Shown: positions 6,976 to 42,206, counted from the first letter of the stretch. The stretch: 64,000 nucleotides of DNA from Thermotogota bacterium (GCA_051748045.1 JBNJGY010000002.1:63701-127700), one strand, 5' to 3'. Translations and numbers: made by a program. Notes: generated from the sequence alone by a model not told the origin.

Positions 6976-7005
6976 AAAAAAACTCCAGTATATATACTGG
7001 AGTTT
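6976..7005 (-). terminator. Terminator of the tRNA operon
   Basis: AAACTCCAGTA-TATA-TACTGGAGTTT stem, T run on minus strand directly after tRNA-Phe. Confidence 0.8.
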
Positions 7006-7006
7006 G

Positions 7007-7082
<76 letters not shown>

Positions 7083-7095
7083 ATAAATAAAAAAA

Positions 7096-7170
7096 TGGTG
7101 GGCGCTGCAGGGATTGAACCTACGACCCTCTGCTTGTAAGGCAGATGCTCTCCCGCTGAGCTAAGCGCCC
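7096..7170 (-). tRNA. tRNA-Val (TAC)
   Basis: GGGCGCTTAGCTCAG...TCTGC-CTTACAA-GCAGA...GGTTCAATCC...GCGCCCACCA, 75 nt. Confidence 0.95.
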
Positions 7171-7182
7171 ACTTTTAAGTGG

Positions 7183-7258
7183 TGGCGCCCCCAACCAGAT
7201 TCGAACTGGTGTCTTTGGCGTGAAAGGCCAATGTCCTAGGCCTCTAGACGATGGGGGC
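7183..7258 (-). tRNA. tRNA-Glu (TTC)
   Basis: GCCCCCATCGTCTAGAGGCCTAGGACA-TTGGC-CTTTCAC-GCCAA...GTTCGAAT...GGGGGCGCCA, 76 nt. Confidence 0.95.
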
Positions 7259-7279
7259 ATCAGTTGATAACCGAAGTAA

Positions 7280-7308
7280 ATAATACCATAGATTATCTCA
7301 GCTGTCAA
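7280..7308 (-). promoter_or_regulatory. Sigma70 promoter of tRNA operon
   Basis: Minus strand TTGACA-17 nt-TATTAT with TGn extension. Confidence 0.75.
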
Positions 7309-13381: not shown

Positions 13382-13387
13382 AATATG

Positions 13388-13420
13388 ATGAAGAAAGATG
13401 TAAATCTTTCTTCATTTATT
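13388..13420 (+). terminator. Intrinsic terminator after mgtE
   Basis: ATGAAGAAAGAT-GTAA-ATCTTTCTTCAT stem then TTATT. Confidence 0.65.
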
Positions 13421-13607
13421 ATTAATTAAAGATTTTTATATTAATATATTAATAACAGAAAATAATTAAAACCATGTTTAAATAGTTAAAAAGTGAAAAT
13501 TTTCATTAAATATTTACTTTTTTAAAAATAATACATTAAAATAAAAAAGTTAAAATTTATTAGTGAAAAAAATAACCAATAATAAATTAGTCTTGGAGTT
13601 GATTCTA

Positions 13608-19065: not shown

Positions 19066-20097
19066 ATGAAAAAAATATTTTTAATTGGTTATTATGGTTT
19101 TAAAAATTATGGAGACGATTTATTATTCAAAACCTTAATTAAAGTTTTTGAAGAAATAGATTTCAAAGGTAAAATAGTTATTCCAGCAGAAGAGTTGCCA
19201 GATTATAATTCAAACAACAATTTTTTCATAGAAAAAATCAATAGGTATGATATATTGAACATCAATCATCATATTAAAAGTTCAGATCTAGTTATTTATG
19301 GTGGGGGTAATTTATTCCAAACAGAAACATCTTTAAAAAGTTTTTTTTATTATTTTCATATTGCTAAACAAGCAATAAAAAACAATAAAAAATTGCTTTT
19401 TTTATCACAAGGATTTGGACCAGTAAAAAATAAAATAGCAAAACCAAGATTAAAAAAAGTTGTAAATTATGAAAATTTAATTGGAGTATATAGAGATGAT
19501 ACATCTTATAAATATGCTAAAAATTTTAATAAAAACTCATATTTAGGCGTTGACATAGGTCCTTACTATTTTAATGATACCCCTATTAAGAAAAAAAATA
19601 AAATATCTTTATGTTTGAAAAATGAATACTACGACATAAAGAATTTAATAAATTTTTTATCAATATTTAATGATTACGAAGTTTCCACTCTTGTGATTAA
19701 CTCAAATCAAGATGCAATTATGAACTATTATATGGTAGAAGAGATAAGAGAGAAAACAGATTTAAATGCTGTTTTCCCTTTTAAAGATTTCGAAAAAATT
19801 ATAGAAGAAATTAAAAGTTCAAAGATTGTTATATCAGATAGATTGCATTCATCTATTACAGCTGCTTATTTTGAAAGTGAGTTTTTTACTTATAATAGTT
19901 CTAAAAATAAAAGGGTTTTAAAAACTATTGACAAAAGTTATGATTTTTTTTATAGGGATCTTATGGATATACCATTCCTTTTTTCAGATAAAGAAGCTAA
20001 AAATTATAATTTTAATGAGTATGGGAAAATATATAAAAATAAGTTAGAAGAATCAATAATTATGACAAAAGAAATTATTCAAAACGCCTTACTATAA
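19066..20097 (+). CDS. Polysaccharide pyruvyl transferase (CsaB family)
   Basis: GYYGFKNYGDD, GGGNLFQ.ETS.KS, QGFGP, RD, RLHS motifs. Confidence 0.85.
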   Translation: MKKIFLIGYYGFKNYGDDLLFKTLIKVFEEIDFKGKIVIPAEELPDYNSNNNFFIEKINRYDILNINHHIKSSDLVIYGGGNLFQTETSLKSFFYYFHIAKQAIKNNKKLLFLSQGFGPVKNKIAKPRLKKVVNYENLIGVYRDDTSYKYAKNFNKNSYLGVDIGPYYFNDTPIKKKNKISLCLKNEYYDIKNLINFLSIFNDYEVSTLVINSNQDAIMNYYMVEEIREKTDLNAVFPFKDFEKIIEEIKSSKIVISDRLHSSITAAYFESEFFTYNSSKNKRVLKTIDKSYDFFYRDLMDIPFLFSDKEAKNYNFNEYGKIYKNKLEESIIMTKEIIQNALL

Positions 20098-21103
20098 GCA
20101 ATTTTCTATCTTCAGTACTCAAAATTAAAACTACATTATTATCTGGTGCTTCAATATCTATTGGATATTTTCCCACTGACAATTCTTGGTATATTTTTTT
20201 GTCTTTTATTACATACAGTTTGTTTTCGATGTGTGAAATAGCATAGATATATTCTTTGTTAGGAGAAATAGCAAAATCTCTAATGGGAACATCTAATAAG
20301 ATTTCTTTTCTATTTTTTTCTATGTCATAAAGATATAACCCTGAATTTAAAGAATTGATCAAAAGTTTTTCTTTATAAACTTCCATATTAGTAGTATAGT
20401 TATTAATGTGGATCAGGAATTCTTGCGTAGATAATAAATTTTTATAAATATTTCCTTCATAATAATTCAAAATATATTCAATTCCATCTTTCATTACAAT
20501 ATCGATTGGATGCTTAATGTTTTTGTAATTTAATATGTAAGTATTGTTTGCTGGTTTTAAAAATAGGATATTGGAATTGAATTTTGAATTCTCGTAATTT
20601 TCAATTAATGGTATATATAATTTTTTTTCATCTTTAATGATTAGAGGACTAACAACAGAGTGATTTATAGAATTTAATATGTTTAAATTACTATCTAATA
20701 TGTAAACTCTATTAGGGTTTGTTGAGGTTATATATATATTGCCTTCAAATAATTCAATATTTGTTGGCTTTGATTCTAATCTAATAGAGTCAATAACTTT
20801 ATCTTTTCTTAATTTATATACAGTTTTTGTGTAATTGTCAATAATGAAAAAGAAATGACCATCATAAATACCACCTAAAGGAATAACAGCATCCTTAAAA
20901 ACAAATTTTTCTTCTGAATAAAAATCTATAATGTCAACTTGTCCATCGTAATCAGGTATTATCACATAATTCTGATTATAAGAAATATAATTAGTTCTGG
21001 TACCTACATCCTGCCTTCCAGTAATAATAAAAGTATCCTTTGGAAAAATAAGAGTCGTCATTAGTGCTAATATTATTGTAATTATAATTTTTTTAAGATT
21101 TAT
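20075..21103 (-). CDS. Secreted YncE/YVTN-like beta-propeller protein
   Basis: Propeller-like repeats ending VGKYPIDI; frame extends upstream of ATG 21061 to ATA 21103 with GGAGGT RBS and signal peptide. Confidence 0.65.
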   Translation of the reverse strand: MNLKKIIITIILALMTTLIFPKDTFIITGRQDVGTRTNYISYNQNYVIIPDYDGQVDIIDFYSEEKFVFKDAVIPLGGIYDGHFFFIIDNYTKTVYKLRKDKVIDSIRLESKPTNIELFEGNIYITSTNPNRVYILDSNLNILNSINHSVVSPLIIKDEKKLYIPLIENYENSKFNSNILFLKPANNTYILNYKNIKHPIDIVMKDGIEYILNYYEGNIYKNLLSTQEFLIHINNYTTNMEVYKEKLLINSLNSGLYLYDIEKNRKEILLDVPIRDFAISPNKEYIYAISHIENKLYVIKDKKIYQELSVGKYPIDIEAPDNNVVLILSTEDRKLLIVRRFE

Positions 21104-21182
21104 AATAATACCTCCTTTTTAGAATTTCATCATTATTTTATCACATGACCATTAAAAAATAAATAATCAGCTAAAATAAGTT

Positions 21183-21211
21183 TTGTAAAATATAACTATA
21201 TGTAGTATAAT
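21183..21211 (+). promoter_or_regulatory. Sigma70 promoter for udk operon
   Basis: TTGTAA-17 nt-TATAAT. Confidence 0.65.
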
Positions 21212-21244
21212 ATGTCAGAAAAAGTCAAAAAGAGGTGAAGCTTA

Positions 21245-29442: not shown

Positions 29443-30144
29443 GTGAATGATAATTATTCAAAAAAATTTTTAGAGTTGCTTAAAATAATGCAGACACTAC
29501 GTGGTGAGAATGGTTGTCCATGGGATAAAAAACAAACTCATAAAACCTTGAGACCTTATGTGATAGAGGAAGCATATGAAGTTGCACATACAATTGATAA
29601 GGAAGATTTAGATGAACTAACTGACGAATTAGGAGATTTGCTCTTACAGGTAATTTTTCATTCACAAATCGCAAAAGAAAATAATGAGTTTGATATTGGA
29701 GATGTTTTAGATAAAATAAATTCAAAAATGGTAAGAAGACATCCGCATGTTTTTAAAGAAGATGGAGAATATAGCTATGAAAGATGGGAAGAAATAAAAG
29801 CAAAAGAAAAGAAGAAAAAATCGTTTTCTATGATTGGAGAAATAAAAAAAAGTCAACCTTCCTTAATACAGTTAAGAAGGTTATTAGAAAATATTCAAGA
29901 AAATGGGATCAAACTTTTTAGTGATTCAGAAAAATTAAAAAAACTTTTTATAGAATCTATAAAAAACGAAGACACGGATAAAATTATATTATATTTTTAT
30001 ATATATTTTATGAACAAAGATCTAGATTTAGAAAAAGAAATTTCACAAACAACAAAAAAACTTTATAATAGTTTTACAGATTTGGAAAATAAAGAAAAAA
30101 AAGAATTATATTTTTTTGAAAAAATTATAGAAGAAAATTTTTAA
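29443..30144 (+). CDS. mazG: MazG-family nucleoside triphosphate pyrophosphohydrolase
   Basis: LR...GCPWD..QT, EEAYE, ELGDLLLQVIFH, RRHPHVF; second domain poorly conserved. Confidence 0.85.
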   Translation: MNDNYSKKFLELLKIMQTLRGENGCPWDKKQTHKTLRPYVIEEAYEVAHTIDKEDLDELTDELGDLLLQVIFHSQIAKENNEFDIGDVLDKINSKMVRRHPHVFKEDGEYSYERWEEIKAKEKKKKSFSMIGEIKKSQPSLIQLRRLLENIQENGIKLFSDSEKLKKLFIESIKNEDTDKIILYFYIYFMNKDLDLEKEISQTTKKLYNSFTDLENKEKKELYFFEKIIEENF

Positions 30145-30163
30145 TAAACAAGGAGGAAGTATT

Positions 30164-31174
30164 GTGAGAAAAATTCTATTAATATTTTTACTATTAACAA
30201 TGTCTATTTTTTTATTTTCTTTAGATGTTCAACATGAAGAACTATCTGAAGATTTATCAATGATTGTGAATGAAGATGAAATTTCTTCAGAGGTTTTTAA
30301 GGCTAAGACAGGTGTTGTTTCCTTATTGAGCACAATAAAAAATACTAATGAAGATTTTTTTCAAACTTTAACAAATACAGCTACAGGATTAGATTTATTG
30401 AATACCTACAATAAAAGAAAGGCACTTGAATTTTCTGGTAATGTTCTTTTTATTCAGTTTGTTGAAGAAAAAGGCATTGAATTGAATAGAGAAACACTAA
30501 AGGAAAGTATAAATTCTCAATTTAATAATATTTTAAATGAAAGTGAATTATCAGAAGAAGATTTATCAAATTATTTAGGATCAAAGGGTTATACATCTAA
30601 AAAGGCTTATTTAGATGAACAGTATTATAATGCTCTTTATGAGAAGGCTATTCAAAGTTATTATGAACAAAAATCAAAAGAATATGATATTACAGAAGAG
30701 GAAATTCAGAAAGAATATAATGAAAATGAGAATTTATATGTAAGACCTCCTCAAGCGGAAATATCAATTATTAGATTTTCTAACTCAGATGAAGCAAGTC
30801 TCACATATAACAAAATCAGTCAAGGTTATTATAGCTTTGAAGAAGTTTTTGAGCAAAAACAATCTGAAGGTAATTCTGATAACATTAATATTAAACTTAA
30901 TGTTCAGCAAAATGAATTTATAGATGAAGTTAAAAATAATGCTCCTGGTTATATATCAAAACCACAAGAGATAAGTGAAAATGAATGGATTCTTATTAAA
31001 ATATTAAAAAAATCTCCCGAGAAAGAGTTGGATTTAGAAGAAGCAAAAAATCAAATAATATTTAACCTAAGAGATAAAAAGGCTAAAGATTATTTTGATA
31101 AAATATTACCAGAAGAGTTTGAAGAATTTAAAAATAATTCAACTCTTATTCTAAATAAGAGTTTATTCTATTAA
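30164..31174 (+). CDS. Exported SurA/PrsA-like foldase (parvulin-type PPIase domain)
   Basis: Signal peptide; IT.EEIQ..YNEN...Y; G.ISKP.....W..IK; LEEAK..I pattern. Confidence 0.7.
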   Translation: MRKILLIFLLLTMSIFLFSLDVQHEELSEDLSMIVNEDEISSEVFKAKTGVVSLLSTIKNTNEDFFQTLTNTATGLDLLNTYNKRKALEFSGNVLFIQFVEEKGIELNRETLKESINSQFNNILNESELSEEDLSNYLGSKGYTSKKAYLDEQYYNALYEKAIQSYYEQKSKEYDITEEEIQKEYNENENLYVRPPQAEISIIRFSNSDEASLTYNKISQGYYSFEEVFEQKQSEGNSDNINIKLNVQQNEFIDEVKNNAPGYISKPQEISENEWILIKILKKSPEKELDLEEAKNQIIFNLRDKKAKDYFDKILPEEFEEFKNNSTLILNKSLFY

Positions 31175-31187
31175 GGAGGTTTTTTGA

Positions 31188-31493
31188 ATGCCAAAGGTAA
31201 CAGAAGAACAAGTTATAAAAGCTCTAGAAAATGTTTACGATATGGAAATAGGATTTGATGTTGTTTCATTAGGCCTAATATATAACGTTGATATAGATGA
31301 TAATAATAACGTTCATGTTGATATGACTTTAACAACACCAATGTGTCCTTTAGCTGGGATGATGGTTGAAGATGCAAAAAGCAAGGTAAGCCAAGTAGAA
31401 GGTATAAATGAAGTAGATGTTGAACTAACTTTTGATCCTCCATGGGATCCTTCTAAAGCAAGTGAAGAAGTTAGAAGATTATTAGGGATATAA
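31188..31493 (+). CDS. DUF59/SufT-like metal-sulfur cluster assembly factor
   Basis: V.D.EI..DVV.LGLIY, MTLTTPMCP, LTFDPPW. Confidence 0.92.
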   Translation: MPKVTEEQVIKALENVYDMEIGFDVVSLGLIYNVDIDDNNNVHVDMTLTTPMCPLAGMMVEDAKSKVSQVEGINEVDVELTFDPPWDPSKASEEVRRLLGI

Positions 31494-32290
31494 TGAACTC
31501 AATAGAATATATAAATAAAATTAGAAGGGATTATAACATTCCTTCTAATTTTATTTTAAAAACAATTTCTAATTATTTGTCTAAAGATTTTTTAGATATA
31601 AAATATAATAAATATGATTTATTGGAAAAAGATGTTATTTTATTAAATAAAGTTTTAATAGATGATTTTCCAATTGAATATGCTATAAATAAAACAAACT
31701 TTTTGGGTCATGAGTTTTATGTAGATGAAAATGTTTTAATTCCAAGAACAGAAACAGAAGATCTGGTTTTAATTTCTGAAAGAATAATTAAACAAAAAGA
31801 ATTTAAAAATATTTTAGATTTAGCAACTGGTAGTGGAGTCATTGGGATATCATTAAAACTCAGAAACCCTAGCCTAAATGTTCATATTTCAGATATATCA
31901 CAAAAGGCATTAAAAGTAGCAATAAAGAATTTTCAAAAATATAATTTAATTATTAATCATTATAAAGCTAATATATTAGAAGGCTTAGAACATTTAATTT
32001 ATAAAATAGATTTTTTCGTTTGTAATCCACCATATGTAGAAAGAAAAAAAGAGTTTTTGAATTCTTCTATTAGATATGAGCCTGAAATAGCTCTTTATGC
32101 TGGCGAAGAAGGTCAAGACTTTTTTAAAGAATTTGTAAAATTTAAAGATATACTAATTAACAAAACAATGATATTTGAAACAACTGAATTTAATTATGAG
32201 AAAACTTCAAGAATTTTATCAGAATTGGGTAAAATAGAAATTATAAAAGATTCTTTTGGTAAAAATAGATTTATTTTAGTCAAAACTTAA
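31493..32290 (+). CDS. prmC: Release factor glutamine methyltransferase
   Basis: P..Y, VLIPR.ETE, DLATGSG, NPPY, EP..AL. Confidence 0.88.
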   Translation: MNSIEYINKIRRDYNIPSNFILKTISNYLSKDFLDIKYNKYDLLEKDVILLNKVLIDDFPIEYAINKTNFLGHEFYVDENVLIPRTETEDLVLISERIIKQKEFKNILDLATGSGVIGISLKLRNPSLNVHISDISQKALKVAIKNFQKYNLIINHYKANILEGLEHLIYKIDFFVCNPPYVERKKEFLNSSIRYEPEIALYAGEEGQDFFKEFVKFKDILINKTMIFETTEFNYEKTSRILSELGKIEIIKDSFGKNRFILVKT

Positions 32291-33576
32291 ATAGGTTTTT
32301 TTATATTGAAATGGTTATGATAATCAGGAGCAGGAGAAATAAATGATGCTATAAATCCTAATATTGGGAAAATCATCATCAAAAGCATAATTTGTGTATA
32401 TCCATTGAAAATATCAAAAGCAAACCCAAAAGGAAGAGGACCTAATGAAGAACCTATTACCATTGTAGTCATAGCTACTCCTCTTATACTACCCAAATGC
32501 TTTCTTCCGAAATAATTAGGCCATAATACCCCTGTACTAACAGAATCAAAAGCCATAAATATTCCATGAGAAAGTGAATAAAATAATAAAATCATTTGAG
32601 ATTCACTAAAAGTTATGATAATCATTGCTATTAATAAAAAAAGATAATTAAAAGCTTTCACGATATTTATTTTAAATTTATCTGATATATATCCTGCTAG
32701 AAAAGTGAAAGGGAATTGTATCATAGCAGCTAAACTCAAAAGAAAAGCAGCATATGTTGAACTGAATCCTTTTTCTTGTATAATTGAAACAATATGAAAA
32801 GTAATTCCTGTATTAATCATAGAAGGAATAATCATACAAAATAACATGAACCAAAAGACTCTTGTTTTCATAGATTCTTTCAAAGTCCAAGAGTGTTCAT
32901 CTTTAAAATCATCAGTTTTTTTCTCTTTTAATTTTTTTAGTTTTTGTTTTGAATGCATATTATCTGGTAGATAACCAACATTTTCAGGTTTATTTCTGAT
33001 TAAAAACCAACCTAATGGTGCCATTAATACTATTAACAATATACTCCAAAATCTCCAAGTAAAATTAGCTCCAGAAGTTAATATAAGTTGATTGTTTAGA
33101 GAAGGTATCAAAGCTGAACCAATTACTCCTCCTAAACCCATTAACGATAAAGCAAGTCCTCTTCTTTTAATAAACCATTGAGGTATTAATGTTTGAGGTA
33201 ATAAGGTCATAGAACCTTGCCCAAATAATCTTAAAAAGAAAAATCCAATAACTAACATTATTGGATTAAAAACAAAACTCATCCATAAACTTGTTAAACC
33301 TAATGCAGATGCTATAATTACCACCATAGTTCTATGCCCTTTTTTGTCTATCAATCTACCTATAAAAGGTAAAACAAATCCAGCAGCTAGTGTAGCTGAA
33401 GAATAAAACGTAGAAATTAGAGACCTGCTCCAACCAAACTTTTCAATATAATAGTTTATAAAAATAGATACGCTGAATGTTTGACCAGGACCTGAAAAAA
33501 ACAATCCCATACCACCAATAAAAACAATAAACCATCCATAAAAAAATGGAGTTTTTAAAATAAACTTATTTTTCAT
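32287..33576 (-). CDS. MFS transporter
   Basis: ~12 TM segments, GRLIDKKG MFS motif, YFGRKHLGSI; ATG 33576 after GGAGG. Confidence 0.9.
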   Translation of the reverse strand: MKNKFILKTPFFYGWFIVFIGGMGLFFSGPGQTFSVSIFINYYIEKFGWSRSLISTFYSSATLAAGFVLPFIGRLIDKKGHRTMVVIIASALGLTSLWMSFVFNPIMLVIGFFFLRLFGQGSMTLLPQTLIPQWFIKRRGLALSLMGLGGVIGSALIPSLNNQLILTSGANFTWRFWSILLIVLMAPLGWFLIRNKPENVGYLPDNMHSKQKLKKLKEKKTDDFKDEHSWTLKESMKTRVFWFMLFCMIIPSMINTGITFHIVSIIQEKGFSSTYAAFLLSLAAMIQFPFTFLAGYISDKFKINIVKAFNYLFLLIAMIIITFSESQMILLFYSLSHGIFMAFDSVSTGVLWPNYFGRKHLGSIRGVAMTTMVIGSSLGPLPFGFAFDIFNGYTQIMLLMMIFPILGFIASFISPAPDYHNHFNIKKPI

Positions 33577-33599
33577 AAAAACCTCCCATAGCATATTAA

Positions 33600-33633
33600 A
33601 AAAATATTTACAGAATAAACTGTAAATATTTTT
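33600..33633 (-). terminator. Intrinsic terminator
   Basis: AAAAATATTTACAG-AATAAA-CTGTAAATATTTTT. Confidence 0.65.
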
Positions 33634-34228
33634 ATTTGTTATATAAATTTTTAACTAGAATGACTTCTCCAATACCAATTTTCATATTTTTTGCTATTTC
33701 ATCTGGAGTTTTTCCTTGGTTCAACAGTCTTCTAATTTTTTCTGTTTTTGTTTCTTCTTTTTTTGAAAACAATTCTTGGGTCTCAGGGCTTTCTTGATCA
33801 AGAATTTCCTCATTTTCATTTTTTGTGATATTTTCTTCTTCATCAATCTTTTCTATAAATTCTACTTTTTCAGGAATATTCTCTTTATTTTTTTTGTTAT
33901 TTTTTGATACATTGTAATTTATGTTCATTTTTTGAATATTATTTATTTTATCTTCGATTGCATTTAGTTGTGAATAAGCGTTATCAATTGAACTTTCTAA
34001 ATCATGTAAAACATCATCGGCAATTTTTATTTTATTATCAAGCAATCTCATTTTATCAGTAGTAATTTTTCTAAATTTAGTCATTATATTTGTAGTATCT
34101 TCATCAATATTTAATAATTTCTCATCTTGTATATCGTTAGTTTTTTTTGCAATTTTAATCATATAAATTAGATTAATCAAACCAATAAAAATTGCTAAAA
34201 TTGATATGATTATAAATGGCAAGGTCAT
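33632..34228 (-). CDS. Membrane-anchored coiled-coil protein with C-terminal HTH-like motif (DUF6115-like)
   Basis: N-terminal TM; C-terminal G....EIAK.M.IG.GEV.L. Confidence 0.65.
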   Translation of the reverse strand: MTLPFIIISILAIFIGLINLIYMIKIAKKTNDIQDEKLLNIDEDTTNIMTKFRKITTDKMRLLDNKIKIADDVLHDLESSIDNAYSQLNAIEDKINNIQKMNINYNVSKNNKKNKENIPEKVEFIEKIDEEENITKNENEEILDQESPETQELFSKKEETKTEKIRRLLNQGKTPDEIAKNMKIGIGEVILVKNLYNK

Positions 34229-34241
34229 TTTAAAATCCCCT

Positions 34242-34850
34242 TTAGTAAGTTATATCAAACACAATTCTTGGGAAGTCAATTTGTTCTTCTTGTTCATAAA
34301 TAACAAAATTTTCTCCTCGTTGAGATGGTTGAGGCACTATAGAACGTATTGTCCAATTTTCAGGATATTCAATAACAATACTATCTTTAACATTTAAAGG
34401 TTGACCAGGTAGAGAAAATTCTATTGTAGAACTATTTAATCTTTCAGTGAATCCCATAACTGTAACGGTTTCTTCTATAGATAAATTTGGATTTGCAGTT
34501 GACATAGTGGACTCATAAGATATGACTTCAAATTCTCTATTTACATTTTGCATTATTTCAGAAAAATTATCTACATATGCTTCCTCTTTTTCTTGATCAG
34601 GAGTGTTAAAGTTATCAATTAATTTATCAAAAGAATTTTCATCTTCTGCTTTCATAGTTATGTTTGTATTAATAGCTACAGATTGATCATCGTTAATTTG
34701 GAATATCGTGTTTGAGCTTTGAATATCATATTTAGCTCTTAAAGAATTTGCCATAAAGAATTGAAATATCGTCAATCCTCCTAAAAATATCAGTGTGATA
34801 AGAATAAAATTTGAATTAGTTTTTCTTTTTGGTCCTTTGTTTTCTGGCAT
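34242..34850 (-). CDS. Membrane-anchored hypothetical protein (DUF4897-like)
   Basis: N-terminal TM; P..W.I.S..PQP motif; ATG 34850 after GAGGAGG. Confidence 0.55.
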   Translation of the reverse strand: MPENKGPKRKTNSNFILITLIFLGGLTIFQFFMANSLRAKYDIQSSNTIFQINDDQSVAINTNITMKAEDENSFDKLIDNFNTPDQEKEEAYVDNFSEIMQNVNREFEVISYESTMSTANPNLSIEETVTVMGFTERLNSSTIEFSLPGQPLNVKDSIVIEYPENWTIRSIVPQPSQRGENFVIYEQEEQIDFPRIVFDITY

Positions 34851-34969
34851 TAAAATCCTCCTCAAAATTATGATTATATTAATTCTATGATATTATACCA
34901 TATAAGATAAAAAATGTGATAGAATATTCATTGATAGCAGTTTACAATATTTCGTATAGGGGGATTCGT

Positions 34970-35635
34970 ATGGAAATACAAGAAAATTCAATGATGATAT
35001 CATTTGACCTGTTTTCCGGGCCATTTGAAAAGCTTGTTGAACTCATAAAAGAAAAGGAAATTCCCATAAGGAGTATACCACTAGCAAATATATGTAAAAT
35101 ATTCAATAAATATATGCATGAAAATTTAGAAAAACTTAATAATATTTCTGAATACATGCATTTATCAGGCTATCTAACTTATTTAAAGTCAAAAGATCTT
35201 TTACCTAACTCAGATAAAAGTCAAAAGTTTAAAAGAGAGAAAAATATGTTTTACTCTTTAGTAGAAGATTTTGATCTTATTAAAAAGACTAAAAAAATTA
35301 TAAAAAATGATTTTGGCACACCTTCAAAAAAATATGTTAGGATAAAAAATCATGCTGATTTTAATAAAGAAAAAGTTCAAGACCAACTAGATATTTTTTT
35401 GAAAGATTTTATAAATGAACATAAAACTTTGGAAATTATAAAAGAATTATATTCTGTAGAAGAAGCTATGCAGAGGATTAATGAAGAAAAACAATTCGAT
35501 TTATTAAAACTGTATACAATTTCTCAAAAGAATAAATTAAAATTTATAGTTATGTTTTTAGCCGCGTTAACTTTAGTTAGAAATGATATGTATGTATATG
35601 AGAATGGTTATTTTATAAGGAATGTGGAGGAATAA
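34970..35635 (+). CDS. scpA: Segregation and condensation protein A (divergent)
   Basis: FSGPFE.LV.LI, L.YLKS..LLP, FLAAL.L; adjacent to scpB-rluB. Confidence 0.75.
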   Translation: MEIQENSMMISFDLFSGPFEKLVELIKEKEIPIRSIPLANICKIFNKYMHENLEKLNNISEYMHLSGYLTYLKSKDLLPNSDKSQKFKREKNMFYSLVEDFDLIKKTKKIIKNDFGTPSKKYVRIKNHADFNKEKVQDQLDIFLKDFINEHKTLEIIKELYSVEEAMQRINEEKQFDLLKLYTISQKNKLKFIVMFLAALTLVRNDMYVYENGYFIRNVEE

Positions 35636-35637
35636 AG

Positions 35638-36183
35638 ATGGATATGAAATTTCAAATTGTTGAAGCTTTAATTCTTTCTAAAAATAATGGAATTAGTTTG
35701 AATGAAATAATAAAAAGAACAAATTATGAAGAAGATGAAATAAAAAAAATAATCAATGAGATTCAACTACATTATATAAATGAAGAACACGGAATTGAAT
35801 TAGGGAGATTTCAAAATAAATTTAGATTTGAAATAAAAACCGAAATAAAAAAACTAATTACTGCAAAACCTAAAAAAATGGAATTAACAGATACTCAATT
35901 TGAAGTATTGACTATTTTATTTTTAAATGGAGCGTCAAGAGGAGTTGAAATAGAAAAATCAAGAGGAAAGAACTCATATTCTCAAATAAAAAAACTTAGA
36001 GAATACGGATTAGTTAAAAAAGTAAAAAGAAAAAATACTCAGAATAGCTATTTGTATGATTTATCCGATAAATTTTATGAATGGATACCTGAAACAACTT
36101 TGAAGAAATTGGAGGAAATTAAGAATGCTAACAGTACAGAAAGCACTACAGACATTGGGGATGAGCAGAAGGAAAGCAGCTGA
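35638..36183 (+). CDS. scpB: Segregation and condensation protein B (divergent)
   Basis: VEALI, GIEL, LT..Q.EVL.I, IE..RG. Confidence 0.75.
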   Translation: MDMKFQIVEALILSKNNGISLNEIIKRTNYEEDEIKKIINEIQLHYINEEHGIELGRFQNKFRFEIKTEIKKLITAKPKKMELTDTQFEVLTILFLNGASRGVEIEKSRGKNSYSQIKKLREYGLVKKVKRKNTQNSYLYDLSDKFYEWIPETTLKKLEEIKNANSTESTTDIGDEQKESS

Positions 36184-36865
36184 TTATATAAAAGATAAAG
36201 GTGTAAAAGTAAATGGAAAACTTGTAAAAGAACCTTGGTTTGAAATAGAATATGGTGATGATTTAGAATTTGATGGGCTAAAACATAAATTTGAAAAAAT
36301 AAAAGAAAAAAAAGAAGATAAGGTTTATTATTTGTTGAATAAACCAAAAGAAGTTTTGTGTGCTATGGAAGATCCATTTGGGAGAAAAACAATAAAAGAT
36401 ATGATAAAAAATAAAATTCGAGAAAAAAATGTTTTTCATGTTGGAAGACTTGACTATAATACATCAGGGATAATATTATTGACAAATGATGGTGATTTAG
36501 CAAATTACTTGCTTCATCCAAAATACAAAGTTGAGAAAATATACGATGTATTAGTAATGGGACATCCAAAAAAAGAAGAGTTAAAACAATTAGAAAGTGG
36601 CATTGAAATAGAAGGTGGAGTTAAAACTCAACCAGCAAAAATAGAAAAAGTAAAGAAAAAAGGTAATAATCATCAAGTTGTCATTAAAATTACTGAAGGT
36701 AGAAAAAGACAAGTAAGACTTATGTTTAAAGCTTTAGGATATACTGTTCTGAACTTAAAAAGATTGGCTTTTGGCCCATGGGAAATAAAAAGAGTGCCCA
36801 AAGAAGGAGATATTGTAAAATTAGATAATTTTGAAGTAAATAAACTTTTTAAAAAATTAAAATAA
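36125..36865 (+). CDS. rluB: 23S rRNA pseudouridine synthase (RluB/RsuA family)
   Basis: S4 domain SRRKA..I..G.V.VNG; NKP; GRLD..TSG..LLTNDG; EGRKRQVR.M. Confidence 0.88.
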   Translation: MLTVQKALQTLGMSRRKAADYIKDKGVKVNGKLVKEPWFEIEYGDDLEFDGLKHKFEKIKEKKEDKVYYLLNKPKEVLCAMEDPFGRKTIKDMIKNKIREKNVFHVGRLDYNTSGIILLTNDGDLANYLLHPKYKVEKIYDVLVMGHPKKEELKQLESGIEIEGGVKTQPAKIEKVKKKGNNHQVVIKITEGRKRQVRLMFKALGYTVLNLKRLAFGPWEIKRVPKEGDIVKLDNFEVNKLFKKLK

Positions 36866-36890
36866 AAAAAGGGGCGATTTTACTCGCCCC
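36864..36890 (-). terminator. Intrinsic terminator oriented for the minus strand
   Basis: GGGGCGA-GTAAAA-TCGCCCC-TTTTTTT on minus strand; no T tail on plus strand. Confidence 0.8.
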
Positions 36891-36937
36891 AGGTGGATGG
36901 GCCGAAAATATTTTCATATTTTCGGGGGGATGGGTAC
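36864..36937 (-). ncRNA. Candidate small regulatory RNA (~72 nt)
   Basis: Own promoter, GAAA-capped 10-bp hairpin, two CCCATCC motifs, GC-rich terminator with T7 tail. Confidence 0.6.
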
Positions 36938-36941
36938 TTTT

Positions 36942-36970
36942 ATTATAACTCACAATTATTAAATAATCAA
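36942..36970 (-). promoter_or_regulatory. Sigma70 promoter of candidate sRNA
   Basis: Minus strand TTGATT-17 nt-TATAAT. Confidence 0.7.
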
Positions 36971-37025
36971 CAATTTTTATTTAATAAAAGTTTCAAAATA
37001 ACGTTTAATGTTAAGGAGACTTAGT

Positions 37026-37784
37026 ATGTTTAAAGATGCAGAAAGAATAGTAAAAAACGCAGGAACTATACTAATTGATAATTTGAACAAAAATTATAAT
37101 ACTTATTCAAAAAAAAATAAGCATGACATAGTTACAGAAATAGATATGAAAATACAAGATTATTTAAAAGAGAATTTATCAAAATTAGATTCTACCTCAG
37201 GATTTTTAGCAGAAGAAAGAGGGCTAACAGATAAGCCTAAAGAAAAAAACTATTGGGCTATAGACCCTATAGATGGAACTGTAAATTTTTCAAGAGGATT
37301 TCCTGAAAATTGTATTTCTGTTGCTTATTTACAAGATAATATTCCTGTTTTTGGGATGATTTATTCACCTCAAATGTCTATTAGTTTTACATGTTCAAAA
37401 AATAATGGTCTTTTCATAAATGGGAAAAAACAAATACCGAAATGGTCTGAAACTATAAACGACGCGATGATTACTATAGGCGCTAATAAGAAAGAAATGA
37501 ACAAATTTATAAACGTTTTATCTGAAAAAGTCATGCGTATTAGATTAATTGGATCCGCTGCAATTATGGGAGCTTATGTAGCTTCTGGTTATGCTGATGC
37601 CTTTATTTTTTCCAAATCAAACCCTTGGGATATAGCTGCTGCTTATAGTATGATAAAAGAAACAGGTGGAGAGGTTATTGATTTTCAAGGAAATGATGTT
37701 GATATTTTTTCAAAAAGAATAATTTTTACCTCAAAATATATTAAAAAAGATATCTTACAATTACTAAAAAACATGGAGGAGTGA
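37026..37784 (+). CDS. suhB: Inositol monophosphatase family protein
   Basis: VT.ID, AEE, W.IDPIDGTVNF, GSAA, WDIAA. Confidence 0.88.
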   Translation: MFKDAERIVKNAGTILIDNLNKNYNTYSKKNKHDIVTEIDMKIQDYLKENLSKLDSTSGFLAEERGLTDKPKEKNYWAIDPIDGTVNFSRGFPENCISVAYLQDNIPVFGMIYSPQMSISFTCSKNNGLFINGKKQIPKWSETINDAMITIGANKKEMNKFINVLSEKVMRIRLIGSAAIMGAYVASGYADAFIFSKSNPWDIAAAYSMIKETGGEVIDFQGNDVDIFSKRIIFTSKYIKKDILQLLKNMEE

Positions 37785-37788
37785 TTAA

Positions 37789-38862
37789 ATGAAAGCAATT
37801 GTTTTATGTGCAGGGAAAGGAACTAGATTAAGACCTTTAACTTTTACTAATGCAAAACCTTTAATACCAATAGCAAACAAACCAACAATAATGTATTCTT
37901 TAGAAAAAATTAAATCCGCTGGAATTACAGAAATTGGTATTATCGTTAACCCAGATAATAAAAAAGACTTCGAAAATGTTCTTGGTAATGGAAATGACGT
38001 AGGAATGGAAATCACTTATATTGTACAAGAAAATCCAAAAGGACTTGCACATGCTGTAGCAATTTCTGAGGAATTTATAGGTGGCGATGATTTTCTAATG
38101 TATCTAGGAGATAATTTAGTTAATGCTGATTTAGAAGGTTTTATCCATGAGTTTAAAAACCAAAAACATGATTCTTTTGTTTTATTAACCCCTGTTGAAG
38201 ATCCAACTAGATTTGGAATCGCAGTGATGGATGATTCTAAAATTGTAAATGTTGTAGAAAAACCAAAAGATCCTCCATCAAATCTAGCTATTATAGGCGT
38301 TTATATATTTAATTCAAATGTGTTCGAAGCAATTAAAAATATAAAACCTTCTTGGCGTGGAGAATTAGAAATAACTGATGCAATTCAATGGTTAATTTCA
38401 AATAATAAGAATGTTGGTGCGCATGTAATATATGGATGGTGGAAAGATACAGGAAAACCGGAAGATTTAATTGAAGCAAATAGAACGATATTAGAGAAAA
38501 TCAAATCCAAGTCAATTGAAGGAAACGTTTATGAAAATTCAACTGTAAGAGGTAATGTAGTTATAGGTAAAGGGTCAAAAATAATTGATTCTATTATTAG
38601 AGGTCCTGCTATAATAGGAGAAAATACGACTATATCAAATGCTTATATAGGACCTTATACTTCCATAGGTAAAGAAGTTAATATTGAAGATTCCGAAATT
38701 GAAAATTCCATAATTTTAGATAGAGCTTCAATCACTTCTATTCATCCAAGAATAGACTATTCCATTATAGGTACTAATGCTAATATAATGTCAATGAAGA
38801 AAAAACCTAAGTCTATGAGGCTTGTTATAGGAGATTATGGAAAAATTGAAATCCCAAAATGA
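37789..38862 (+). CDS. Glucose-1-phosphate thymidylyltransferase (long form with left-handed beta helix)
   Basis: AG.GTRLRPLT...AKPL.P, Q..P.GLAHA, LGDN, EKP, RGELEITDA, WKDTG. Confidence 0.9.
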   Translation: MKAIVLCAGKGTRLRPLTFTNAKPLIPIANKPTIMYSLEKIKSAGITEIGIIVNPDNKKDFENVLGNGNDVGMEITYIVQENPKGLAHAVAISEEFIGGDDFLMYLGDNLVNADLEGFIHEFKNQKHDSFVLLTPVEDPTRFGIAVMDDSKIVNVVEKPKDPPSNLAIIGVYIFNSNVFEAIKNIKPSWRGELEITDAIQWLISNNKNVGAHVIYGWWKDTGKPEDLIEANRTILEKIKSKSIEGNVYENSTVRGNVVIGKGSKIIDSIIRGPAIIGENTTISNAYIGPYTSIGKEVNIEDSEIENSIILDRASITSIHPRIDYSIIGTNANIMSMKKKPKSMRLVIGDYGKIEIPK

Positions 38863-38872
38863 GGTGATTTTC

Positions 38873-40468
38873 ATGAATGATATCAAAAATCTTTGGGAAA
38901 AAATTTATGGTAAGAATGAATATGAAAAATTGAATGATTTGATAAAATTAATAGAAAATAAAAAAAACAAAATTAAATACGTACCTAAAGATAAAAATTG
39001 GCTTGAAAAGGGGATAATATACTCACTTTATGTAGACCATTTTGCAAAAAATTTTAAAGGTATGAAAGATAAAATTTATTATTTAAAAGATTTAGGTGTT
39101 AAAACAATTTGGCTACTTCCAATTTTAGAATCACCTATGCAGGATCAGGGTTTTGATATTTCTGATTATTATAAAGTAAGATCTGATTTGGGAACAAATG
39201 AAGAATTTTATGATTTGATTAATGAAATTCATAAAAATGGAATGAAGATAATATTTGATGTAGCAGTTAACCACACATCGGTTGAACATGAATATTTTAA
39301 AAATTCAAGAGAATCAAAAAATAATCCTTATAGAAATTGGTATATTTGGAATAAAGACAGGAACAAATACGACTCTACTAGAATACTCTTTAAAGGTATG
39401 ATGGAGAGTAATTGGGAATACGATGAAAAAACTGGAGAGTACTACTTTCATAGGTTTTATGATATTCAACCTGATTTAAATTATAAGAATCCAGAAGTTT
39501 TAATAGAAATGATAAATATTCTCTCTTTTTGGAAAATGAAAGGTGTAGATGGATTTAGAATGGATGCAGCTCCATTTTTATGGAAAGAAGAAGGAACTAG
39601 TTCAGAAAATCTTGAAAAAACACATCTTATTTTAAAAATTTTTAGAAAAGTTTTAGATTATATTGGTGAAGGCACAGTTTTAATCGCTGAAGCAAATCAA
39701 CCTCCAAAAGAAGTGGTTGAATACTTTGGTAAAGGAGATGAATGCCACGCAGCTTATCATTTCCCATTAATGCCTAAGGTTTATTTATCTATATCAGAAA
39801 AAAAACCAGAATATATAATGGAAGCTATATCAGAAAAAAATACTCCAAGGATTCCAGAAGGAACTCAATGGTTGGTATTTCTTAGATGTCATGATGAATT
39901 AACTCTAGAATTTGTAAAAGAAGAAGAAAGAGAGAAAATGCTAAAATATTATTTACATGATAAAAGGTGGATTTTCAGAGAAGGAGAAGGAATTTCTGGA
40001 AGATTGATGAATCTTTTTGAATTTGATATAAGAAAAATATTGTTAGCTTATTCAGCTATGTTTTCATTAAAAGGAACATTCATCAATTATTTTGGTGATG
40101 AATTTGGAATGACTAATAATGATGATTATTATAAAAGGATGAAAGAAATAACAGGTTATACTGATTCAAGATACTTCAATAGAGGTCCTTTTGATTGGAT
40201 ACTTCTAGAAAAAGCTAAAAAAGATGAAAATTCAAGAAATCATAAACTTTATAAAAATATTAAAGCCATGATTAAATCTAAAAATGAAAATGAGAATCTA
40301 TTTAATCAAAATATGCATTTAATAATAGAAGATAATGTTCTTATTTCTAAAAGAAAAACAGATAAGAAAGAAATTACTATATATAATAATTTTGATGATA
40401 AAGAAAAAAATATAGATAATTTACATTTAGACCCATATGAGTACAGATGGATAATCAAGGAGGTATAA
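38873..40468 (+). CDS. GH13 trehalose synthase (TreS)-like maltose alpha-D-glucosyltransferase
   Basis: NHTS, HRF..QPDLN, GFRMDA, EANQ, FLRCHDELTLE motifs typical of TreS subfamily. Confidence 0.8.
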   Translation: MNDIKNLWEKIYGKNEYEKLNDLIKLIENKKNKIKYVPKDKNWLEKGIIYSLYVDHFAKNFKGMKDKIYYLKDLGVKTIWLLPILESPMQDQGFDISDYYKVRSDLGTNEEFYDLINEIHKNGMKIIFDVAVNHTSVEHEYFKNSRESKNNPYRNWYIWNKDRNKYDSTRILFKGMMESNWEYDEKTGEYYFHRFYDIQPDLNYKNPEVLIEMINILSFWKMKGVDGFRMDAAPFLWKEEGTSSENLEKTHLILKIFRKVLDYIGEGTVLIAEANQPPKEVVEYFGKGDECHAAYHFPLMPKVYLSISEKKPEYIMEAISEKNTPRIPEGTQWLVFLRCHDELTLEFVKEEEREKMLKYYLHDKRWIFREGEGISGRLMNLFEFDIRKILLAYSAMFSLKGTFINYFGDEFGMTNNDDYYKRMKEITGYTDSRYFNRGPFDWILLEKAKKDENSRNHKLYKNIKAMIKSKNENENLFNQNMHLIIEDNVLISKRKTDKKEITIYNNFDDKEKNIDNLHLDPYEYRWIIKEV

Positions 40469-40469
40469 A

Positions 40470-40793
40470 ATGCCATATATAAATATGAAAGGTATGAAAG
40501 AAGATAAAGAGATTACAGCAAAAATTATAAATAAGATAAGCGAATTAACTGATAAGCCAAAAAAATATATTATGTTTTCAAATGAAGAATTAAAAGTTCA
40601 ATTCAATGATAAACCAGGTTTTATTTTTGAATATAAACAAATTGGGGAATTAGAATATGATAAAAAAATAGAAATCATCAATGAGGTTACAAAAATATTA
40701 GTAGAGAAAAACTTAAAACCTGAAGATATATATTTTACTTTTGATTTTTATTCGAGAGAAAATTGGGGTTGGAATAATAAGTTATTTGGATAA
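40470..40793 (+). CDS. MIF/phenylpyruvate tautomerase-like protein
   Basis: Pro after initiator Met, KP..YIM, QIG, IY.TF, NWGWN..F C-terminus. Confidence 0.8.
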   Translation: MPYINMKGMKEDKEITAKIINKISELTDKPKKYIMFSNEELKVQFNDKPGFIFEYKQIGELEYDKKIEIINEVTKILVEKNLKPEDIYFTFDFYSRENWGWNNKLFG

Positions 40794-40824
40794 AAAATGA
40801 AGCTTTTTAAAGCTTCATTTTTTT
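40792..40824. terminator. Bidirectional intrinsic terminator
   Basis: AAAAAATGAAGCTTT-TT-AAAGCTTCATTTTTT. Confidence 0.8.
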
Positions 40825-42188
40825 CATTCAACTCTTTTATATTTCCATTTACCTTTTTTATAGAAAACAATTCCAATAAATGTTTCCATCAAGTCTCCAA
40901 ATACATATGATAACCATATCCAAATAATAGGAAGTTCAAAAATGGAAATTGCTATAAAAAGACACGGTATTTGAACGGCCCATCTAGATATAATACTCGA
41001 TACAAATATTGGAAAATTGTATCCAGAACCTGAAAACGCAGTTGTAATTCCAAAATAATACCCAAGAAAAACAAGTCCTATAGAACCATAAATCAAAAAT
41101 TCTGTTCCATATCTTATGACTTCAACATCTTCTGTAAACAATGATAGAATATTGTCTCCAAAAAATATTACAATTATAGTAAAAATTATCATGAAAAAAG
41201 ATGATACTAAAGAAGCTATTTTTGTAGTTTTTACTGACCTTTTAATCATGTTAGCTCCTAATGATTGACCTACTACTGTACTCCCTCCCATAGAAAATCC
41301 TAATAAAGGCATAAAGGCAAATCCAAAAATTCTACCTGCAATGCCATTTGCAGCTATAGCAGAATTTCCAAAGATTGCAACAAAACTTAAAACTAAAGTA
41401 TTAGAAATATTTCTTAAAAAAACTTCAATTCCATTCGGTAGGCCTATAGTAATTAACTCTTTATCAATGTGTAAGTTTAATTTAAATAAACCTTTTAAAG
41501 AGGGTTTAATTCCTCTGATACCTGAAAAGAGTATATAAAAACCTACTAAAAAAGCAATTGATTGTGAAATTATTGTTGCTATTGCAGCTCCAAAAATTCC
41601 AAGATTAAAGCCAGGGATATTTAATAAAGGAACAGTTTCAAACATCATCAAAGGGTCTAAAATAATATTTAAAATACTAACAAAAATCATTATAAGCATA
41701 GGTGTGTAAGAATCACCAATACATCTTAGTGCTGTATTTACAGAGTAAGAAGAAAACATAATTGGTAAAAAGAATAATCTTATGTATCCATATTCTAACC
41801 CAAAATCTACTACCACATTGCTACCAAAAAGTCCCATTAATGGTTCTAGAAATATAGATAAAATAATTGCTGCCAAAGTAGCCATTATAAATTTAAAAGT
41901 AATTGTTTGCTCTATAGCTAATTTTGTTTCTTTAATATCTTTTCTTCCAAAAGCTTGAGATATTAATGAAATAGAACTAACCCCAATAATCTCGTTCAAA
42001 GATTCTATAACCCAAAATAAAGTTGTGAAAATAGTAACACCAGCTATTGCTTCGGAAGAAATTTTGCCTATCCAAAAAATATCAACTAAGTCATAAACCA
42101 TTTGAGCTGAAAATCCTATCATTGTTGGAACTGACATCATAATAAGATTTTTAAAAATATTACCTTTCGTTAAATCCCTTGTCATCAT
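40824..42188 (-). CDS. MATE family efflux transporter
   Basis: DLTKG.I, VD..WIG, NIILDP, GAAIAT, GQ.LGA. Confidence 0.92.
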   Translation of the reverse strand: MMTRDLTKGNIFKNLIMMSVPTMIGFSAQMVYDLVDIFWIGKISSEAIAGVTIFTTLFWVIESLNEIIGVSSISLISQAFGRKDIKETKLAIEQTITFKFIMATLAAIILSIFLEPLMGLFGSNVVVDFGLEYGYIRLFFLPIMFSSYSVNTALRCIGDSYTPMLIMIFVSILNIILDPLMMFETVPLLNIPGFNLGIFGAAIATIISQSIAFLVGFYILFSGIRGIKPSLKGLFKLNLHIDKELITIGLPNGIEVFLRNISNTLVLSFVAIFGNSAIAANGIAGRIFGFAFMPLLGFSMGGSTVVGQSLGANMIKRSVKTTKIASLVSSFFMIIFTIIVIFFGDNILSLFTEDVEVIRYGTEFLIYGSIGLVFLGYYFGITTAFSGSGYNFPIFVSSIISRWAVQIPCLFIAISIFELPIIWIWLSYVFGDLMETFIGIVFYKKGKWKYKRVE

Positions 42189-42206
42189 CCACCTCTAACT
42201 AGATAG

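Follow-up and report, generated by a model that had tools for sequence, protein, structure and literature searches.

The element described in this study lies in a 64,000-nucleotide (nt) stretch of DNA from a Thermotogota bacterium (GCA_051748045.1 JBNJGY010000002.1:63701-127700), referred to below as the window, and occupies positions 36864 to 36970 of the minus strand, between two plus-strand genes designated rluB and suhB. It has the predicted layout of a short RNA gene with its own promoter and terminator. An earlier reading of the sequence (the original prediction) had placed here a promoter, C-rich motifs, a 10-bp hairpin, and a GC-rich terminator with a U7 tail, and all of these parts are present at 36864 to 36970. 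Read along the minus strand, an AT-rich stretch (36971 to 36988) precedes the −35 box TTGATT (36965 to 36970), which is followed after a 17-nt spacer by the −10 box TATAAT (36942 to 36947); the two hexamers score 10/12. Transcription is predicted, from spacing only, to start 5 to 7 nt past the −10 box, at G36937 or A36935, so that a GUA (36935-36937) lies ahead of the first C-rich stretch, CCCAUCCCC (36926 to 36934), the residues of which have an unpaired probability of 0.97 or more at temperatures between 37 and 80°C. Two more C residues (36925 and 36924) come directly after this stretch and close hairpin 1 (36902 to 36925), an AU-rich stem of 10 perfect Watson-Crick pairs in the predicted fold, which is composed of the 5′ arm CCGAAAAUAU (36925 to 36916), a GAAA loop (36915 to 36912), and the 3′ arm AUAUUUUCGG (36911 to 36902). 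The second C-rich stretch, CCCAUCCACCU (36891 to 36901), lies between the hairpins and is unpaired with a probability of at least 0.95. The unit ends in an intrinsic terminator (36864 to 36890) with a 7-bp stem, GGGGCGA/UCGCCCC, in which 6 of the 7 pairs are GC, and a 6-nt loop, GUAAAA; the U7 run (36870 to 36864) comes directly after this GC-rich stem-loop (36890 to 36871), as in intrinsic terminators. This is the sole terminator-like site in 35500 to 38500, and its T tail faces the RNA unit rather than rluB, as had been claimed, being co-oriented with the promoter on the minus strand.

The plus-strand gene that converges with the unit (36125 to 36865) encodes a pseudouridine synthase of the RsuA/RluB family and is the last gene of scpA-scpB-rluB; its product passes the general pseudouridine synthase model TIGR00093 only, and the name rluB is approximate. 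The scpB open reading frame (ORF; 35638 to 36183) and the pseudouridine synthase ORF, which starts at 36125 after a GGAGG ribosome-binding site, share 59 nt (36125 to 36183). The gene divergent from the RNA promoter (37026 to 37784, plus strand) encodes a protein of the inositol monophosphatase family that scores below every equivalog cutoff, and the name suhB is likewise approximate. Its ORF opens at ATG 37008, but ATG 37026 is the one with an AAGGAG ribosome-binding site at normal spacing upstream. Translation probably begins at 37026 rather than at 37008, and the spacer between the two genes is therefore counted as 160 nt. At the other end of this spacer, the minus-strand U tail shares 2 nt with the TAA stop codon of the plus-strand pseudouridine synthase gene. 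Ribosome-binding sites in the window are G-rich (e.g., GGAGG, AGGTG, and GGGGG).

The body of the unit stands out from its surroundings in both structure and composition. The 74-nt RNA has a minimum free energy of −26 kcal/mol and a z-score of −5.61, and none of 200 shuffled sequences folds equally well. The same two hairpins are predicted at all temperatures between 37 and 80°C, with each C-rich stretch at least 95% unpaired. In agreement with the claim that the segment is far more GC-rich than its flanks, the richest 60-nt window in this spacer reaches 51.7% GC, none of the other 18 intergenic regions that exceed 40 nt goes above 38.3%, and the GC content of the whole window is 27.7%. Under a stricter definition of a terminator, with a minimum of 4 GC pairs and 6 or more T in 8, the 64 kb contains three strong terminators, including that of the candidate. 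The other two close co-oriented units, namely, a tRNA Phe-Val-Glu cluster and an RNA methyltransferase gene, and the candidate's terminator points away from both neighboring genes. The tRNA cluster (6980 to 7308, minus strand) served as a positive control for the promoter-plus-terminator layout: it carries TTGACA-17-TATTAT with a TG at 7308 to 7280 and an 11-bp terminator at 7005 to 6980, which shows that RNA genes of this genome are enclosed by a promoter and a terminator of this kind.

To find the locus elsewhere, the phosphatase protein was used as the query over the contigs of species-representative genomes, and 1 of 77 pattern matches was confirmed as the locus. This match is a metagenome-assembled-genome contig from an uncultured Thermotogaceae bacterium, hereafter the relative, in which the query protein has 87% amino acid identity and the gene order is the same as in the window. 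The nearest species-representative genome thus has approximately 85% DNA identity, and the query protein has no 100% match among the representatives; the window's own species therefore seems to be absent among them. Positions 29740 to 40958 could be aligned with the relative, and 9542 of the 11,214 aligned positions are the same (85.1%). The longest perfect run, 86 nt at 36851 to 36936, takes in the RNA body together with the terminator and the next 13 nt, and the third longest, 49 nt at 36940 to 36988, extends from the −10 box through the promoter spacer and the −35 box to 18 nt upstream. Both promoter hexamers, hairpin 1, and the AT-rich upstream stretch are thus identical in the relative; the last of these (36971 to 36988) may serve the promoter as an UP-like element or may be regulatory DNA that is shared. 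The unit differs from its counterpart in the relative at 36937 and 36939 only, both of which lie past the −10 box and ahead of the first C-rich stretch. In one of one relative, 76 of 77 aligned columns are the same, and the body, which extends from C-rich stretch 1 through the U tail, is fully so; the C-rich stretches and the hairpins named in the original prediction are accordingly conserved in that genome.

The block from 36851 to 36988 has 2 mismatches in 138 columns, the best of 11,118 windows of this length, for which the mean is 21.0 and the next nonoverlapping value is 5. The second-best window, with these 5 mismatches, spans the scpB/rluB overlap at 36125 to 36183. Identity to the relative is 96.3% (154/160) over the whole spacer, 70.8 to 90.1% over coding regions, and 74.5%, 92.4%, and 53.3% in the three remaining intergenic regions that measure 30 nt or more. 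This pattern argues strongly for a noncoding element under constraint in which the predicted promoter is included. The two copies have the same stems, which therefore show no covariation. A run of 85 nt at 31032 to 31116, second in length among the perfect runs, was considered as a second RNA candidate and rejected: no RNA structure is predicted for it (z-score = 0.24), and it belongs to the coding sequence of a PPIase-like gene (30164 to 31174), toward the 3′ end. Third codon positions in this run are unchanged in the relative as well.

Two reading frames, of 34 codons on the minus strand and 43 codons on the plus strand, cross the element and could point to a gene for a small protein or to a peptide-encoding RNA of dual function. 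The start of the 34-codon frame precedes the −10 box, and the internal AUG frame on the minus strand has no ribosome-binding site and reaches its stop codon past the terminator. In the 43-codon frame, 6 substitutions between the window and the relative produce 4 amino acid changes and are distributed evenly over the three codon positions; genuine genes in the same alignment vary mainly at third positions. The frame has no match among 1,835,955,588 representative proteins. On the basis of the frame positions, the substitution pattern, and the lack of protein matches, the small-protein reading was rejected as hardly credible, and the statement that the segment holds no plausible ORF stands.

The candidate matches no Rfam family. 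At the gathering score, Rfam 15 gives three matches over the whole window, all of which are tRNAs, and none lies on the candidate. In E-value mode (36750 to 37100 and 36850 to 36945), the best minus-strand matches score 20.6, 18.6, 18.3, and 16.3 bits, against gathering scores of 60, 38, 80, and 95, respectively. The families concerned, SSRC41, SdsR/RyeB, STnc361, Ysr49, and MmgR ("suhB"), score 13 to 21 bits where gathering scores are 38 to 95; these matches are at chance level and align essentially to the terminator, and they were rejected as family membership. The comparison with Rfam that had been proposed as a check thus yielded no family.

A dispersed repeat, which had been named as a finding that would count against the element, was rejected as well for the 64 kb of genome covered, as was a mobile element. 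A covariance model was built from the two copies, those of the window and the relative, and was searched with filters off over the window plus the related contig; it recovers its two copies alone, at approximately 113 bits, and the next match scores 15.9 bits. Neither the hairpin half-site nor the C-rich 10-mer recurs beyond chance in the searches of these two sequences, blastn against a phage collection gave no match, and blastn against a plasmid collection gave two chance matches, both to the AT-rich promoter part. Within the window plus the related contig, the candidate is single copy, with one copy in each, and noncoding.

Because the promoter, the structured GC-rich body, and the sole nearby terminator all face one way, an unannotated, noncoding, standalone minus-strand unit fits the anatomy and the conservation best. 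From these features we infer transcription with its strand and 5′ end, as well as trans pairing and all of the targets named below. Transcription would start at the sigma-70-type promoter (36970 to 36942, minus strand) and end at the intrinsic terminator (36890 to 36864), and the resulting RNA would consist, in order, of a 5′ single strand with CCCAUCCCC, the AU-rich 10-bp hairpin, a single strand with CCCAUCCACCU, and the terminator hairpin with U7. The two exposed C-rich stretches would then most likely pair with the G-rich Shine-Dalgarno (SD) and start codon regions of mRNAs encoded elsewhere, and such pairing would block ribosome binding in the manner of the unpaired UCCC motifs of RsaE and RoxS. 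Our tentative proposal, to which we give somewhat less than an even chance, is thus a standalone, single-copy noncoding RNA (ncRNA) gene of approximately 72 nt on the minus strand that acts by base pairing on G-rich ribosome-binding sites elsewhere.

Complementary ribosome-binding sites do exist in the window, as had been noted. The first C-rich stretch is complementary to GGGGGAU before scpA (34959) and fliL (61496), and the second, through CAUCCACCU, is complementary to AGGUGGAUG (42186 to 42194), which lies directly before the start of a MATE gene. Duplex energies were calculated for 65 translation initiation regions from the 64 kb of genome, with internal coding windows and 200 shuffled oligonucleotides of the same composition as controls. 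The mean energies at initiation regions are −7.4 and −7.1 kcal/mol for the two stretches, against −4.0 and −3.8 kcal/mol in internal coding windows.

Several results weigh against the proposed small RNA (sRNA) and its mode of action. The shuffled oligonucleotides bind the initiation regions as well or better, with means of −8.3 and −7.4 kcal/mol against the observed −7.4 and −7.1 kcal/mol, and the energies of the best matches, −16.5 kcal/mol for scpA and −15.9 kcal/mol for the MATE gene, are reached by 31.5% and 15.5% of the 200 shuffles, which bears out the caveat, made with the original prediction, that matches this short could be due to chance. In the relative, the GGGGGAU core of the scpA site is kept, as that of any ribosome-binding site would be, and the flanking pairing positions are altered; the MATE and fliL sites lie outside the related contig. 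Over the 65 initiation regions, the C-rich stretches show no target specificity beyond that of the shuffled oligonucleotides. Thus, of the claim of a trans-acting sRNA that pairs with ribosome-binding sites, the standalone noncoding anatomy holds, and the pairing itself is no better than that of shuffled oligonucleotides. Since the duplex test gave no specificity, the trans-acting anti-SD mechanism is one that we infer only from the anatomy and from analogy.

Two parts of the anatomy are also less telling when taken singly. The promoter match alone is not beyond chance, as 19 promoter-like sites occur in 3 kb, compared with 17.5 ± 4.2 in shuffled sequences. CCCATCC occurs twice in the 64-kb window with both strands counted, and both occurrences are in the candidate; however, among 5000 shuffled versions of the RNA of each kind, a 7-mer with 5 or more C residues is repeated in 452 dinucleotide and 10 mononucleotide shuffles. 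With approximately 9% of dinucleotide shuffles containing such a repeat, the twin C-rich motif alone is only weakly significant and is suggestive rather than decisive. The prior for sRNA regulators in the phylum is also not high, given the small number of ncRNAs in Thermotoga maritima, for which a multi-omics study gives 12 to 13 putative ncRNAs, presented there without defined structures (PMC3636130). Finally, the RNA is identical in the relative, and all 17 predicted pairs are Watson-Crick pairs that would form on either strand; the conservation is therefore blind to which strand matters.

This last point bears directly on the possibility that the plus strand is the functional one and that its two hairpins and twin GGAUGGG form an mRNA element in the 3′ untranslated region of rluB or the 5′ untranslated region of suhB. 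Such an element could be a 3′-end stabilizer or a site for an RNA-binding protein, for example, one of the CsrA type. CsrA-type proteins recognize GGA, and GGATGGG is found twice on this strand, 33 nt apart, with a third GGA in the ribosome-binding site of suhB. Both hairpins form equally well on the plus strand, where the 145-nt spacer has a z-score of −3.65, and conservation cannot separate the strands. The U7 tail and the promoter, on the other hand, make sense on the minus strand only, and there is no csrA or hfq gene within the 64-kb window. An 11-nt boxA consensus has been quoted for gamma-proteobacterial suhB leaders (PMC5725501); by eye, no boxA is visible in the spacer, for which no pattern search was made. 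Taken together, a plus-strand mRNA element appears quite improbable.

The same inverted repeat may also be viewed as DNA. The palindrome CCGAAAATAT-N4-ATATTTTCGG could serve as an operator at which a transcription factor binds as a dimer and controls suhB or the neighboring operon, and it could lie beside an ordinary terminator hairpin. The palindrome is a perfect inverted repeat of two 10-bp arms that are 4 bp apart, and the direct CCCATCC repeats that flank it are separated by 33 bp, or three helical turns, which would suit such a site; all of this is fully conserved in the relative. In the 64 kb, however, the half-site with at most 1 mismatch gives 8 matches, where 7.2 are expected, and the two exact matches are the palindrome's own arms. 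There is no plus-strand promoter nearby to be controlled, and the U7 terminator directed away from both genes would be left unexplained. We consider an operator very unlikely.

The main rival to the trans-acting sRNA is a cis-encoded antisense RNA directed against plus-strand read-through from scpA-scpB-rluB into suhB-rmlA, a reading absent from the original prediction. The RNA would be perfectly complementary to the spacer within such a transcript, and pairing or convergent transcription would uncouple the two halves through duplex cleavage, a roadblock, or transcriptional interference. Within 36866 to 37025, no promoter-like or terminator-like site is found on the plus strand, and the GC hairpin viewed on that strand is preceded by A7 and has no U run after it; scpA-scpB-rluB may therefore read through into suhB-rmlA. 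The 3′ end of the RNA abuts the rluB stop codon, and conservation extends over the full 160-nt spacer, beyond the RNA body. Long operons are usual in T. maritima, in which a value of 3.3 genes per unit is given (PMC3636130). Read-through is nevertheless presumed from the sequence, and a weak or nonconsensus suhB promoter or Rho-dependent termination after rluB may exist instead. A purely antisense role would also leave the two exposed single-stranded C-rich stretches unexplained. We regard cis-antisense action as unlikely, although it can coexist with a role in trans.

A combination of the two would make the candidate the first described trans-acting anti-SD-type sRNA family of Thermotogota, set convergently into the spacer of a string of housekeeping genes and with double duty in cis and in trans. 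In cis, the pairing of the RNA would insulate scpAB-rluB against read-through into suhB-rmlA; in trans, G-rich ribosome-binding sites would be masked by the two CCCAUCC stretches, each of which is complementary to a start region of the GG-AUG-GG type. This wider reading seems decidedly unlikely.

The proposed standalone sRNA functionally resembles several known RNAs and appears to be a member of none of their families. In Staphylococcus aureus and Bacillus, unpaired UCCC motifs of RsaE and other sRNAs bind SD sequences and prevent formation of the initiation complex (PMC2790875). With RsaE and RoxS the candidate shares a short standalone layout with its own promoter and an intrinsic terminator, both predicted here from the sequence, and more than one unpaired C-rich stretch (CCCAUCCCC and CCCAUCCACCU, with a probability of at least 0.95); AUCCCC in the candidate contains UCCC, which is a likeness in mode and not in membership. 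It differs from them in that no sequence or structure match was obtained, RsaE being absent among the Rfam matches up to E = 10; in that CCCAUCC(C/A)CC lies in linear single strands rather than in hairpin loops; and in that the host is Thermotogota-like and does not belong to the Bacillales.

Anti-SD motifs have also been ascribed to the alpha-proteobacterial sRNAs MmgR and AbcR (PMC7143759), and MmgR is described as a trans-acting sRNA of approximately 77 nt with an anti-SD motif and a terminator (PMC7143759; bioRxiv 10.64898/2025.12.09.693200). The candidate is similar to this MmgR/SuhB sRNA (RF00519, the alpha-r8 family) in its predicted size, in its proposed anti-SD motif, and in its terminator, and the family name is that of the neighboring gene here. 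The CU-rich anti-SD motif of MmgR is different, however, as is the phylum, and membership in RF00519 was rejected at 13.4 bits against a gathering score of 41 (E = 0.87 in the 96-nt search), where the terminator and U tail are the parts that align. The 6C sRNA of Actinobacteria likewise binds several mRNAs through C-rich stretches (PMC6486639), but those stretches are in the hairpin loops of a high-GC RNA, and there is no Rfam match to it here. The likeness to the 3′ modules of enterobacterial Hfq-type sRNAs is confined to the GC hairpin and U tail, a combination usual at sRNA 3′ ends, to which SdsR/RyeB (18.6 bits) and Ysr49 (16.3 bits) align; both are far under their gathering scores of 38 and 95, and the terminator alone is aligned.

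Regulatory sRNAs are nearly undescribed in Thermotogota. A literature search on sRNAs of this kind in the phylum found nothing on the candidate element, and the main text of a 50-genome ncRNA survey, the part to which this statement is limited, mentions neither Thermotogota, Marinitoga, and Petrotoga nor suhB. Outside the well-studied phyla, annotated sRNAs are reported to number 1 to 2 per genome on average (PMC9029176). Against this background, the candidate, at approximately 72 nt, is cleanly delimited, conserved, and testable, and it comes from a deep-branching and probably thermophilic lineage. If the proposal is true, the theme of a C-rich seed directed against the SD sequence would extend beyond Firmicutes, Actinobacteria, and alpha-proteobacteria, and it would point to convergent evolution of such a design in AT-rich genomes with strong ribosome-binding sites. 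The element is a good sRNA candidate and does not introduce a new principle.

Two other regions of the window deserve mention. A 296-codon ORF with a GTG start (20075 to 20965, minus strand) has no ribosome-binding site and no Pfam match, and it adjoins the longest spacer of the window (20966 to 21244, 279 nt), in which the local GC content reaches 37%; the region from 20075 to 21244 may represent a wrong gene call or something unannotated. The most AT-rich spacer of the window, 226 nt with 14% GC (13382 to 13607), is located between the genes for an MgtE-type transporter and a thioredoxin-like ferredoxin.

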